Shown in pieces: positions 1,727-51,843 of a stretch of 64,000 nt of DNA (position 1 is the first letter of the stretch; each line of letters begins with the position of its first letter). Origin of the DNA: Escherichia coli (GTDB taxonomy: Bacteria > Pseudomonadota > Gammaproteobacteria > Enterobacterales > Enterobacteriaceae). The notes below the pieces were generated by a model. It made no database searches and was not told where the DNA came from. It worked only from the letters and a program-made list of their open reading frames with translations. Location of the stretch: the NCBI RefSeq assembly GCF_003334315.1, contig NZ_QOWR01000003.1; one strand, written 5' to 3'. The position numbers were made by a program, and so were the translations under genes.

Positions 1727-3589
1727 ATGAGTTTTGATATTGCCAAATACCCGACCCTGGCACTGGTCGACTCCACCCAGGAGTTACGACTGTTGCCGAA
1801 AGAGAGTTTACCGAAACTCTGCGACGAACTGCGCCGCTATTTACTCGACAGCGTGAGCCGTTCCAGCGGGCACTTCGCCTCCGGGCTGGGCACGGTCGAA
1901 CTGACCGTGGCGCTGCACTATGTCTACAACACCCCGTTTGACCAATTGATTTGGGATGTGGGGCATCAGGCTTATCCGCATAAAATTTTGACCGGACGCC
2001 GCGACAAAATCGGCACCATCCGTCAGAAAGGCGGTCTGCACCCGTTCCCGTGGCGCGGCGAAAGCGAATATGACGTATTAAGCGTCGGGCATTCATCAAC
2101 CTCCATCAGTGCCGGAATTGGTATTGCGGTTGCTGCCGAGAAAGAAGGCAAAAATCGCCGCACCGTCTGTGTAATCGGCGATGGTGCGATTACCGCAGGC
2201 ATGGCGTTTGAAGCGATGAATCACGCGGGCGATATCCGTCCTGATATGCTGGTGGTTCTCAACGACAATGAAATGTCGATTTCCGAAAATGTCGGCGCGC
2301 TCAACAACCATCTGGCGCAGCTGCTTTCCGGTAAGCTTTACTCTTCACTGCGCGAAGGCGGGAAAAAAGTTTTCTCTGGCGTTCCGCCAATTAAAGAGCT
2401 GCTCAAACGCACCGAAGAACATATTAAAGGCATGGTAGTGCCTGGCACGTTGTTTGAAGAGCTGGGCTTTAACTACATCGGCCCGGTTGACGGTCACGAT
2501 GTGCTGGGGCTTATCACCACGCTTAAGAACATGCGCGACCTGAAAGGCCCGCAGTTCCTGCATATCATGACCAAAAAAGGTCGTGGTTATGAACCGGCAG
2601 AAAAAGACCCAATCACTTTCCACGCCGTGCCTAAATTTGATCCCTCCAGCGGTTGTTTGCCGAAAAGTAGCGGCGGTTTGCCGAGCTATTCAAAAATCTT
2701 TGGCGACTGGTTGTGCGAAACGGCAGCGAAAGACAACAAGCTGATGGCGATTACTCCGGCGATGCGTGAAGGTTCCGGCATGGTCGAGTTTTCACGTAAA
2801 TTCCCGGATCGCTACTTCGACGTGGCAATTGCCGAGCAACACGCGGTGACCTTTGCTGCGGGTCTGGCGATTGGTGGGTACAAACCCATTGTCGCGATTT
2901 ACTCCACTTTCCTGCAACGCGCCTATGATCAGGTGCTGCATGACGTGGCGATTCAAAAGCTTCCGGTCCTGTTCGCCATCGACCGCGCGGGCATTGTTGG
3001 TGCTGACGGTCAAACCCATCAGGGTGCTTTTGATCTCTCTTACCTGCGCTGCATACCGGAAATGGTCATTATGACCCCGAGCGATGAAAACGAATGTCGC
3101 CAGATGCTCTATACCGGCTATCACTATAACGATGGCCCGTCAGCGGTGCGCTACCCGCGTGGCAACGCGGTCGGCGTGGAACTGACGCCGCTGGAAAAAC
3201 TACCAATTGGCAAAGGCATTGTGAAGCGTCGTGGCGAGAAACTGGCGATCCTTAACTTTGGTACGCTGATGCCAGAAGCGGCGAAAGTCGCCGAATCGCT
3301 GAACGCCACGCTGGTCGATATGCGTTTTGTGAAACCGCTTGATGAAGCGTTAATTCTGGAAATGGCCGCCAGCCATGAAGCGCTGGTCACCGTAGAAGAA
3401 AACGCCATTATGGGCGGCGCAGGCAGCGGCGTGAACGAAGTGCTGATGGCCCATCGTAAACCAGTACCCGTGCTGAACATTGGCCTGCCGGACTTCTTTA
3501 TTCCGCAAGGAACTCAGGAAGAAATGCGCGCCGAACTCGGCCTCGATGCCGCTGGTATGGAAGCCAAAATCAAGGCCTGGCTGGCATAA
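1727..3589 (+). CDS. dxs: 1-deoxy-D-xylulose-5-phosphate synthase
   Basis: 620-aa [29 protein letters not shown]...; TPP-binding [18 protein letters not shown] motif. Confidence 0.97.
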
Positions 3590-40154: not shown

Positions 40155-40415
40155 TTACTGACGAGGATGCTTCAATAACTTCTTTACGTAATCGCGCAGC
40201 AGCTCCGTATCGTCGTCAGGAATGCTGGCATCGGGCTTTACCTCGTACAGCGCCCCCTCTACCTGATCAATCAACCGCTGTTGGTCATTTTGCGCCATAT
40301 TGCGAAGCATTGCAGTGACGATAATCTCCAAAGCTTCTACCTGCGCACACAGTTCTTTCGACTCTTCTTCTTTTTGGGCAAGCTTAAATAACAACTCAGC
40401 AATGAGATTTTTCAT
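40155..40415 (-). CDS. iraP: Anti-adapter protein IraP
   Basis: 86-aa [43 protein letters not shown]... Confidence 0.93.
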
Positions 40416-40877
40416 GTCTGTATTTCCTTATCCAAAGTATGGAGAAGTTAACATTATGTTTCACAACTTCATAGTGTCTGGAAGTATTATTTTTATGACA
40501 AAGGAAATACTTTGCGCAAATATTTTTTGTTTGATTACCAGCGAAACGTTTCTCTTATTTAAATAACTACCCACACAAAATATAGGCTTTTAATTATCAA
40601 CCTTTATTATAAATAAAAGTTATGAAATATATTCTCTTCGTTAACTTATAATTAAGAGAAAAAAACTCACCGCATGGCCATTTAAGCCAGGAATAAATTA
40701 GCTTCCCGTTCATCATTTTTGTGATCTTGCGCACATCTTTGAGATAACGCACTTTCTTCACCAGTACGTTGCACGCTTTGTCAGCAGAAGATTGCAACAA
40801 TCTTTCAGAAGGCCGCGAATCCCCCGTTTTGTCGTGGTAATGTATGCACTTTGTGTTAGACGGGATAGGTTTTTAAG

Positions 40878-41972
40878 ATGGAAAAACTGCGGGTAGGAAT
40901 CGTTTTTGGTGGTAAATCAGCGGAACATGAAGTGTCTCTGCAATCGGCAAAAAACATTGTCGATGCCATTGATAAAAGTCGCTTCGACGTTGTGCTGCTG
41001 GGCATTGATAAACAAGGGCAATGGCACGTCAGCGATGCCAGCAATTATCTGCTAAATGCAGACGATCCTGCCCATATTGCGTTGCGCCCTTCGGCGACCA
41101 GCCTTGCGCAGGTGCCAGGTAAACATGAGCATCAGCTTATCGACGCGCAAAACGGTCAGCCGTTGCCGACGGTGGATGTCATTTTCCCGATTGTCCACGG
41201 TACGCTGGGCGAAGATGGTTCCTTGCAGGGAATGCTGCGGGTCGCCAATTTACCGTTTGTAGGTTCTGATGTTCTGGCTTCAGCAGCCTGTATGGATAAA
41301 GATGTCACCAAACGTCTGCTACGCGATGCCGGGCTGAACATTGCGCCATTTATTACCCTGACGCGCGCTAATCGTCACAACATCAGTTTTGCCGAAGTGG
41401 AGTCTAAACTGGGGTTACCACTGTTTGTAAAACCGGCTAATCAGGGCTCTTCTGTTGGTGTCAGCAAAGTAACCAGTGAAGAACAGTACGCAATTGCCGT
41501 CGATCTGGCGTTCGAGTTCGATCATAAAGTGATCGTTGAGCAAGGGATCAAAGGTCGTGAGATCGAATGCGCAGTTCTGGGCAACGACAATCCGCAAGCC
41601 AGCACCTGTGGCGAGATCGTACTCACCAGCGATTTCTATGCCTACGACACCAAGTACATTGACGAAGATGGCGCGAAAGTGGTAGTTCCGGCAGCCATTG
41701 CACCAGAGATCAACGATAAGATCCGGGCGATTGCCGTTCAGGCTTATCAGACGTTGGGATGCGCAGGCATGGCGCGTGTAGACGTGTTTTTAACCCCAGA
41801 GAACGAAGTGGTGATCAACGAGATCAACACACTGCCTGGCTTCACCAACATCAGTATGTATCCGAAGCTGTGGCAAGCCAGCGGTCTGGGTTACACCGAT
41901 CTGATCACACGTTTGATTGAGCTGGCGCTGGAGCGTCACGCTGCGGATAACGCATTGAAAACCACAATGTAA
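40878..41972 (+). CDS. ddlA: D-alanine--D-alanine ligase A
   Basis: 364-aa [53 protein letters not shown]... Confidence 0.97.
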
Positions 41973-46671: not shown

Positions 46672-50346
<3,675 letters not shown>

Positions 50347-50868
50347 TTGTCATCCCTCCTCAGGGACGTAATAAGTTGATCCATCAATTATCAATGCATA
50401 GAAAACATATTATGTTTCGCGCTAACGATTATGCTGTGTTACAGACGAATGGTTCAATTATTCTTTCCCCTAAGTCCGAATGTGGACATATATAATTTAT
50501 GGAGAAAAACACGCATCGAATTGATAAAAACACCATATTTCAATATGTTGCAGATGATGTTATTTTTGATACATACGCGTCACAAATATCACGGACACAA
50601 ACCAGATAAATATCCTATCAATATGCAACAAAGTTTTAATTATTCAATTTATAGCAGGGCAACCAAACTCCCAAAATAATAACCAAGAGCTATTAATAAA
50701 GATTAAAAATATTTTCAGTGAATATGAAATTATTGCTATTTCTATTACAACGATGTCCTGGTCTCTCTTTCATTCTCTTCTTGTCAACATCGCGACAACT
50801 TTCGTAAAACACTCCTGCCCCGCTTCAGGTATACTGTGCACCTTAATTCCACAAACATCAGGCAGACC

Positions 50869-51843
50869 ATGACAGACTTAATCCAACGCCCTCGTCGCCT
50901 GCGCAAATCTCCTGCGCTGCGCGCTATGTTTGAAGAGACAACACTTAGCCTTAACGACCTGGTGTTGCCGATCTTTGTTGAAGAAGAAATTGACGACTAC
51001 AAAGCCGTTGAAGCCATGCCAGGCGTGATGCGCATTCCAGAGAAACATCTGGCACGCGAAATTGAACGCATCGCCAACGCCGGTATTCGTTCCGTGATGA
51101 CTTTCGGCATCTCTCACCATACCGATGAAACCGGCAGCGACGCCTGGCGGGAAGATGGACTGGTGGCGCGTATGTCGCGCATCTGCAAGCAGACTGTGCC
51201 AGAAATGATCGTCATGTCAGACACTTGTTTCTGTGAATACACTTCTCACGGTCACTGCGGTGTGCTGTGCGAGCATGGCGTCGACAACGACGCGACTCTG
51301 GAAAATTTAGGCAAGCAAGCCGTGGTTGCAGCTGCTGCAGGCGCAGACTTCATCGCCCCTTCCGCCGCGATGGACGGCCAGGTACAGGCGATTCGTCAGG
51401 CGCTGGACGCTGCAGGCTTTAAAGATACGGCGATTATGTCGTATTCGACCAAGTTCGCCTCTTCCTTTTATGGCCCGTTCCGTGAAGCTGCCGGAAGCGC
51501 ATTAAAAGGCGACCGCAAAAGCTATCAGATGAACCCAATGAACCGTCGCGAGGCGATTCGTGAATCACTGCTGGATGAAGCCCAGGGCGCAGACTGCCTG
51601 ATGGTTAAACCTGCTGGAGCGTACCTCGACATCGTGCGTGAGCTGCGTGAACGTACTGAATTGCCGATTGGCGCGTATCAGGTGAGCGGTGAGTACGCGA
51701 TGATTAAGTTCGCCGCGCTGGCGGGTGCTATAGATGAAGAGAAAGTCGTGCTCGAAAGCTTAGGTTCAATTAAGCGTGCGGGTGCGGATCTGATTTTCAG
51801 CTACTTTGCGCTGGATTTGGCTGAGAAGAAGATTCTGCGTTAA
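50869..51843 (+). CDS. hemB: Delta-aminolevulinic acid dehydratase (porphobilinogen synthase)
   Basis: ORF track 50836..51843 trimmed to ATG 50869 ([26 protein letters not shown]...), 324 aa. Confidence 0.95.

Follow-up and report, generated by a model that had tools for sequence, protein, structure and literature searches.

The divergent iraP/ddlA spacer of Escherichia coli as a probable composite control region with a candidate RbsR operator

Why does the spacer between the divergent genes iraP and ddlA of Escherichia coli extend over several hundred base pairs of AT-rich DNA, and does it hold a gene of its own? The locus was analysed in a 64,000-nt stretch of E. coli DNA (RefSeq assembly GCF_003334315.1, contig NZ_QOWR01000003.1; hereafter the window, whose coordinates are used throughout). 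The open reading frame (ORF) list and the annotation place the spacer at 40416-40877, exactly 462 bp, between the 86-aa iraP ORF on the minus strand (40155-40415) and the 364-aa ddlA ORF on the plus strand (40878-41972). A preliminary description, made from the sequence alone, had presented this AT-rich region as carrying the promoters of both genes, as long for a housekeeping spacer, and as a candidate site for an unannotated regulatory RNA. The present analysis indicates, with good confidence, that the spacer is a composite transcriptional control region made of fused non-coding pieces, with no gene of its own. What is new is a candidate member of the RbsR regulon, predicted from sequence and conservation, and a putative evolutionary account of an orphaned CRP site.

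The extent and composition given in the preliminary description proved correct. The GC content of the spacer is 34.4%, falling to 28.1% in the 285 bp proximal to iraP (40416-40700), compared with 51.1% for the window, 46% for iraP and 51% for ddlA. Only 1.1% of all 462-bp segments in the 64 kb are equally AT-rich, the only other stretches with a GC content of at most 34.4% over 462 bp being 50249-50870 and 55259-56090. The names of the flanking genes were confirmed by the RefSeq annotation of identical E. coli DNA, and the neighbourhood is the phoA-iraP / ddlA-yaiZ region of E. coli, inverted relative to K-12. The spacer is the reverse complement of K-12 400924-401385 with a single mismatch, at 40567, and is present at an identity of at least 90% in 5,423 of 5,426 complete E. 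coli genomes (at least 95% in all but 20).

Synteny of the iraP/ddlA interval

The length of the spacer was compared across 80 species-level iraP loci of the Enterobacteriaceae, in each of which ddlA was located. Distances of 451-465 bp between ddlA and iraP were found only in Escherichia; three Citrobacter species had about 600 bp, and Salmonella, Enterobacter, Leclercia, Kosakonia, Cedecea and others had either 1.6-1.8 kb or about 2.4 kb (up to 2.5 kb). The extra DNA of these other genera corresponds to two genes on the iraP strand, one encoding a 227-aa protein with an Extensin-like_C domain (Pfam PF06904, E = 1e-53) and the other a 403-aa MdtG-like major facilitator superfamily (MFS) transporter (NCBIfam NF007372, 543 bits, just below the equivalog cut-off). 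The MFS gene occurs in about 66 of the 80 species and the Extensin-like_C gene also in about 55. The usual order in Enterobacteriaceae is therefore ddlA on one side and, divergently from it, the Extensin-like_C gene, the mdtG-like MFS gene and finally iraP.

When compared with the other genera by sensitive blastn, the E. coli spacer splits into three parts. The ddlA-proximal segment of about 82 bp (40877-40796) aligns with nearly every genus, and the iraP-proximal segment, 80-230 bp long (from 40415 to about 40494-40650), also aligns with other genera; the middle portion of about 145 bp matches only Escherichia and, partly, the Citrobacter species with short spacers. In the Salmonella and Enterobacter locus, the ddlA promoter, the promoter block of the MFS gene and the region upstream of iraP are orthologous to those of Escherichia, which differs in having neither coding sequence and no remnants detectable by blastx. 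When the Escherichia and short Citrobacter spacers were searched by blastx against the Extensin-like_C and MFS proteins for coding remnants, only chance matches were obtained (E > 0.3); one weak match that had been considered as a remnant was traced to the DNA block of the CRP site described below and did not reflect protein homology. The locus thus bears the syntenic marks of a gene-loss scar, as relatives have genes at this position and the non-coding flanks are kept, without pseudogene fragments. The spacer is long because Escherichia lost both genes and what is left is the sum of their non-coding flanks. The remark that it is long for a housekeeping spacer was accurate as to length; its cause, the loss of two genes in Escherichia and the fusion of their flanks, goes beyond the preliminary description.

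According to the scenario proposed here, the loss of the Extensin-like_C and MFS genes in Escherichia would have joined three non-coding pieces. The first would be the ddlA-proximal segment of about 82 bp, with a housekeeping promoter of the extended -10 type; the second, the former MFS promoter with a strong CRP site, now presumably orphaned; the third, an AT-rich region of about 215 bp upstream of iraP, with two sigma-70 promoters and a predicted RbsR-type operator. RbsR bound at this operator would then modulate the transcription of iraP and, hence, the stability of RpoS.

Spacers of about 595-605 bp, from which both intervening genes are missing, were observed in Citrobacter sp. NCU1, Awk 4 and R56 (loci L009, L010 and L011). 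Their CRP sites are full or close to consensus (0-1 core mismatch), and compared with E. coli these loci retain about 150 bp more of the former MFS leader and terminator region; they could represent either an independent loss or an intermediate state.

Promoters and predicted binding sites

Transcription on the iraP strand was assessed with published Cappable-seq data from cells in mid-log phase in M9-glucose, given in U00096.2 coordinates. The conversion (v3 = v2 + 776; window position = 441801 - v3) was checked against the iraP ATG. Between K-12 v2 positions 398889 and 400650, the only plus-strand starts, that is, those on the iraP strand, were 400543 (score 298), 400561 (3.3) and 400587 (168), which correspond to 40482, 40464 and 40438 in the window and lie 67, 49 and 23 nt from the ATG. 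The distal promoter P2 (40482-40494, minus strand; Cappable-seq and conservation) has the -10 region ATAAAAATAAT, the mapped start at 40482 and a 67-nt leader; its A, T and A at 40490-40488 are 95-100% conserved among 81 sequences and its discriminator is AT-rich. The proximal promoter P1 (40438-40453, minus strand; same evidence) is of the extended -10 type, TGtTAACTT (40453-40445), with a 23-nt leader and a mapped start, 40438, exactly 7 nt past the hexamer. In the same 81 sequences, its TG (40453-40452) is 98% conserved, as are the A and the final T of TAACTT (40450-40445), the first T of which reaches 95%. The Shine-Dalgarno sequence of iraP, AAGGA (40425-40429, minus strand), has a G-G-A conserved in 100% of them. 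The gap therefore combines mapped iraP 5' ends with conserved, correctly spaced hexamers, as in divergent sigma-70 promoters.

The sole minus-strand match of a promoter consensus scan, CAGACA-16-CATAAT, was discarded, there being no transcription start site (TSS) at the predicted position of about 40446; the scan missed both regions that fit the mapped starts, the -10 region at 40494-40486 and the extended -10 at 40453-40445. The supplements of the SMRT-Cappable-seq study and of Romero et al. gave no entry for iraP or ddlA. The iraP promoter is activated by ppGpp/DksA according to the part of the literature consulted (Bougdour and Gottesman, 2007; Girard et al., 2018, cited in PMC10948607). 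It is the same gene and the same region as those studied here, with the mapped starts and AT-rich surroundings at 40438-40494; the upstream operator and the CRP block were not described for iraP in the portion of that published work covered by the text search.

Upstream of the iraP core promoters, the most conserved element is a palindrome, GAGAAACGTTTCGC / GAGAAACGTTTCGCTG (40553-40538), part of a predicted operator of the RbsR type (LacI family) at 40538-40557 that reads TAAGAGAAACGTTTCGCTGG on the iraP strand. Its centre, at 40547.5, is located at -65.5 from the distal iraP start and 132 nt from the ATG. Compared with the K-12 rbsD operator, TCAGCGAAACGTTTCGCTGA (palindrome GCGAAACGTTTCGC), it is identical at 13 of the 14 core positions and at 17 of 20 with flanks, i.e., with one and three mismatches, respectively; one half-site is perfect, and over the right half and its flank, AGCGAAAC, no base differs from the rbs operator. 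By a binomial estimate, the chance of at least 17 matches in 20 is about 3e-5 in the spacer and about 0.3 per E. coli genome, and in 98 kb of E. coli DNA the rbs operator and the iraP site were the only 14-mers with at most two mismatches. The position is also fixed, a site with at most three core mismatches occurring at -123 to -140 from the iraP ATG in about 58 of the 80 species, from more than 15 genera. Its columns are 77-92% conserved in the 81 sequences, against 20-40% in the flanks. The operator is invariant in Escherichia and unchanged in divergent E. coli strains, and across genera the left half-site is degenerate, with GAG, GAA or GCA before AAAC.

In sequence and conservation, both this element and the CRP site have the features expected of their classes, and we infer that the operator would be bound by RbsR, or by another factor with its specificity, which would modulate iraP transcription and, in turn, the stability of RpoS. 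RbsR is annotated as a dual regulator in K-12. The rbsD operator lies about 10 bp before the start codon, consistent with repression; in contrast, the candidate operator of iraP is 65.5 bp before the start site, which is where activating sites, such as those of Cra, are more typically found. As it lies outside the core promoter of the distal start, the site fits activation better than repression. More specifically, and tentatively, it may be a working RbsR site through which ribose-free RbsR directly stimulates iraP transcription, stabilising RpoS across the Enterobacteriaceae, with a second and less likely layer in which the orphan CRP promoter has been captured as a cyclic AMP (cAMP)-dependent upstream promoter of iraP.

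In Salmonella, rbsR and iraP mutants both have lower RpoS protein and both grow fast on succinate (Succ+) (Wenner et al., 2024, PMC10965054). The effect of RbsR does not pass through rpoS transcription, and an indirect, unidentified route was proposed (PMC10965054). Direct activation of iraP by RbsR would explain the low-RpoS and succinate phenotype of the Salmonella rbsR mutant. The literature search found no paper describing an RbsR site at iraP. Should the operator be functional, the ribose or nucleoside status of the cell would be a new input to the well-studied circuit of RpoS proteolysis, and a sugar-to-sigma-factor link conserved across the Enterobacteriaceae would offer a simple mechanism for an open observation in Salmonella.

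Upstream of K-12 rbsD (positions 3244-3257 of locus L083), a further and weaker RbsR-like site, GTAAAACGTTTCGA, was noticed, about 80 bp ahead of the main rbs operator. Its sequence is similar to the variants of the iraP site seen in Enterobacter (GAAAAACGTTTCGC), and it stands about 8 bp before a TGATCACA motif, which we take to be a putative CRP half-site.

The middle of the spacer contains, at 40695-40738 on the minus strand, what appears to be the orphaned promoter block of the lost mdtG-like MFS gene, recognised from a block shared with other genera, published CRP binding and conservation. In Salmonella, Citrobacter, Enterobacter, Lelliottia and Leclercia, a CRP-site scan located TGTGA-N6-TCACA directly past the Extensin-like_C stop, ahead of the MFS gene. 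The E. coli spacer has a single CRP-like site, TGTGCGCAAGATCACA (40735-40720; one mismatch in 10 core bases), which is followed by TCACAAAaATGATGAaCGGGAAG and then by a TAnnnT hexamer, in the same register as in genera with the MFS gene. The block comprises this site, a 19-nt spacer, AAAATGATGAACGGGAAGC (40701-40719), and a -10-like TAATTT (40700-40695). The predicted start, near 40688, points to iraP, the block being about 270 nt upstream of the iraP ATG. The CRP site and a 27-nt block are common to the MFS upstream region of about 38 species, 110-125 bp before the MFS ATG; TAATTT stands in the same register as the TAAAAT or TAAAAC of other genera, and no start was mapped there in glucose-grown cells. 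CRP binds the E. coli site in vitro with an estimated Kd of 1.2 nM, the site being listed among 'novel CRP sites' in a 2026 Footprint-seq preprint (PMC12871828).

The mean pairwise identity within Escherichia is 0.91 for the CRP block, compared with 0.93 for the working core promoters and 0.62-0.75 for the flanks, which suggests that the block is still under constraint. From the inferred ddlA start it is separated by about 122 bp and from the distal iraP start by 245 bp, in either case too great a distance for CRP to activate transcription in the ordinary way. The literature search found no paper linking CRP to iraP. Like class II CRP promoters, the block has a site of the TGTGA-N6-TCACA type, a 19-nt spacer, a TAnnnT hexamer and a high affinity in vitro; unlike them, it lacks in Escherichia the mdtG-like MFS gene that it served, and no transcript was seen from it. 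The strong CRP site published as novel is recognised here as the promoter relic of that lost gene.

The 19-nt spacer of the block (AAAtATGATGAaCGGGAAG, 40701-40719; also in the MFS-upstream block of loci L012-L054) shows much stronger conservation than a class II promoter would require and may hold the site of a second factor. Read as codons, it begins ATG ATG, with no Shine-Dalgarno sequence and with unconserved downstream frames.

On the ddlA side, conservation places the core promoter at 40835-40843 on the plus strand, with the extended -10 TGgTAATGT, a predicted start near 40850 and a predicted leader of about 28 nt. In cGTGgTAatgT (40834-40843), all of the 74 Enterobacteriaceae sequences compared (100%) share the T, G, T, A and final T, and the extended -10 is invariant within Escherichia. 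This is probably a housekeeping promoter, its start being derived from spacing. The statement that the spacer holds the promoters of both genes is supported by this conservation and, for iraP, by the mapped 5' ends. Immediately upstream is a conserved block at 40796-40834 (plus strand; 78-97% column conservation in the 74 sequences), which includes AACAATnTnTCAGAAGGC (40796-40813). In other genera, nothing more than this block lies between ddlA and the divergent Extensin-like_C gene; the blastn homology with nearly all genera stops at about 40796.

Weighing of alternative explanations

That the AT-rich spacer encodes an unannotated small regulatory RNA (sRNA) with its own promoter and terminator, as had been suggested, seems very unlikely. 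The length and AT-richness of the spacer speak for it, as does the promoter-like block at the CRP site followed, about 30-55 nt on, by a hairpin, an arrangement resembling on paper a promoter-hairpin cassette. In this respect the locus recalls CRP-controlled sRNA genes such as spf (Spot 42), which likewise have a CRP site in AT-rich intergenic DNA; it differs from spf in having no Rfam match, terminator, 3' end or conserved structure. Rfam gave, at E <= 10, only chance eukaryotic matches (three microRNAs and one long non-coding RNA) at or beyond the edges of the gap, none of them inside 40416-40861, and a scan of the spacer for intrinsic terminators returned no terminator-like sites. In the searchable part of the Term-seq tables of Adams et al., no 3' end is reported between the ddlA terminator (K-12 399790) and phoA (401850). 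Start-site mapping, proposed at the outset as a check, gave iraP-strand 5' ends only near iraP, at three positions, and none between 40483 and 40877 in M9-glucose. The curated K-12 record has no feature in the gap, although recent sRNAs such as rbsZ are included there.

The hairpin itself, TTCTCTT-N15-AAGAGAA (40632-40660, minus strand), was the single region of low z-score in a sliding fold scan (z = -3.3 in E. coli). It is aligned with the terminator region of the Salmonella MFS gene and is not maintained in other Escherichia (alifold energy about -0.3); conservation, another check proposed, revealed no structure kept in the genus. The hairpin was rejected as a terminator, being unconserved despite its z-score, and is probably a decayed relic at the position of the Salmonella MFS gene terminator. 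An IS1A element was observed at about 40635 in one clinical isolate, E. coli Ec-U7 (1789-2486 of locus L087), between the orphan CRP block and the iraP upstream region; the insertion shows that disruption of this part of the spacer is tolerated, a further point against an RNA gene here. In the data examined, the region had no iraP-strand TSS away from iraP, no 3' end or terminator, and no RNA family or conserved structure, of the kind that an sRNA gene should have.

Two ORFs in the spacer had been regarded as non-coding, and this view is reinforced by frames that are disrupted in sister Escherichia and, for some strains, within E. coli itself. The 67-aa ORF (40597-40800, minus strand) starts with TTG and is annotated by PGAP as the 'hypothetical protein' WP_001300163.1 in most RefSeq E. 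coli; it is intact in the window, which would be the case for a real small-protein gene. This is, however, highly improbable, and the ORF was judged a spurious call. None of the six other Escherichia lineages compared (L003-L008) keeps the frame, which is interrupted there by indels of 1-2 bp and by in-frame stops; in some E. coli the ORF carries a flag from PGAP itself for a frameshift or an internal stop. It is absent from curated K-12, and its sole conserved patch is the DNA block of the CRP site. The 88-aa ORF (40300-40566, plus strand), also starting with TTG and antisense to the 5' end of iraP, was judged non-coding, with stops or frame changes in five of the six other lineages; it is open in L007. 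Neither ORF matched an NCBIfam family at E <= 0.01. Equally improbable is horizontal acquisition of the AT-rich DNA followed by silencing by H-NS. Its 28% GC over 285 bp would suit such an origin, but the AT-rich part is the ancestral region upstream of iraP, aligned at the same position in Salmonella, Citrobacter and Enterobacter, shows no mobile-element features and is present in essentially all E. coli. The spacer is an ordinary divergent promoter region, lacking every testable hallmark of an sRNA or protein gene. A false lead is thereby removed, no evidence of a hidden RNA or protein gene having been found in the spacer, and a mis-annotated coding sequence propagated through thousands of RefSeq E. 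coli genomes is exposed.

As for the regulatory sites, the iraP palindrome could be bound by a LacI-family factor other than RbsR, such as Cra, PurR or another, or by none, a reading that we regard as somewhat unlikely. The core AAACGTTT is common to the operators of RbsR, Cra and PurR, the left half-site is degenerate, and few peaks were reported for RbsR in genomic SELEX. Against this, identity to the rbs operator is complete over the right half and its flank, and the discriminating positions read TGAAAC in sites of Cra and GCAAAC in those of PurR. The upstream regions of purHD, add and udk, which are reportedly targets of RbsR, hold nothing closer than 4-5 mismatches in 14. We give a similarly doubtful standing to the capture of the orphan CRP promoter after gene loss, whereby it would still be active and produce a third, cAMP-dependent iraP transcript with a leader of about 270 nt. 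It would be favoured by the nanomolar CRP binding, the site-hexamer spacing equal to that of genera keeping the MFS gene, the retention of -12T, -11A and -7T in the -10-like hexamer, the near-promoter level of identity of the block within Escherichia and the lack of a terminator between block and iraP. It is opposed by the missing TSS in M9-glucose, a low-cAMP condition, by a left half-site that reads TGTGC and not TGTGA, by a degenerate hexamer (GAATTT) in two Escherichia lineages, and by a 10-nt complement of the Shine-Dalgarno region (40501-40510) that would lie inside such a leader and could block translation.

Several points weigh against the account preferred here, of a gene-free composite control region with RbsR acting at iraP. 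In the Salmonella study itself, preference is given to an indirect explanation by way of over-expressed rbsD (PMC10965054). Genomic SELEX of RbsR reported only five peaks, and the RbsR site at iraP is a prediction. The Term-seq negative covers only part of the tables, and the Cappable-seq support concerns the iraP strand, the ddlA-strand start being inferred. Moreover, the conservation of the orphan CRP block in Escherichia is not accounted for, and the TSS data come from glucose-grown cells, with low cAMP, which leaves room for a cAMP-dependent start at the orphan promoter.

Other sites and minor observations

A CATAACTTT motif at 40615-40624 (minus strand), about 200 nt upstream of the iraP ATG, is invariant in seven Escherichia and shared with Salmonella and Citrobacter. 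In the form CATAACTTTnAnTTAT(G) it is conserved in all three genera (equivalent positions of loci L017 and L009-L012), and in Salmonella and Citrobacter it makes an inverted repeat, CATAA-N7-TTATG. A NagC site published as an in-silico FITBAR prediction (PMC3098098) falls at 40562-40584 and contains the one difference from K-12, where the plus strand has C at 40567 in the window and T in K-12 and in the other E. coli strains examined (L084-L086). It was dismissed as a functional element, being not conserved even within Escherichia. Inspection of the conserved blocks, by eye only, gave no convincing match to a Pho box or a PhoP box, and no mention was found in the portion of the text of the ChIP compendium of Lally et al. 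that was available.

A perfect 10-nt inverted repeat links GTATTTCCTT (40501-40510) to the complementary Shine-Dalgarno region of iraP, AAGGAAATAC (40420-40429), and a further inverted-repeat pair joins 40433-40440 and 40507-40514. The upstream arm precedes both mapped starts, and about 0.15 such repeats would be expected by chance in the spacer (rough estimate). The sequence GTATTTCCTT could act as an anti-Shine-Dalgarno element only in a longer transcript, for instance one that comes from the orphan CRP promoter or, in other genera, reads through from the upstream MFS gene.

In Citrobacter amalonaticus S646 (L012), a GC-rich element of about 100 bp (...CCCCTTCGGGGCCAGCGCAAGCGCTGTTCAAAACGACTACGCGTTTTGT...) occurs twice, at about 1450-1590 in the ddlA-side spacer and at about 2700-2860 immediately ahead of the regulatory region of iraP, and resembles a small repeated or mobile element. 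Finally, a bicyclomycin-sensitive site at about 41460 on the minus strand of the window (K-12 400341, plus strand) appears in the Rho-termination table of Adams et al.; it is antisense to ddlA, on the strand running toward the spacer and iraP.

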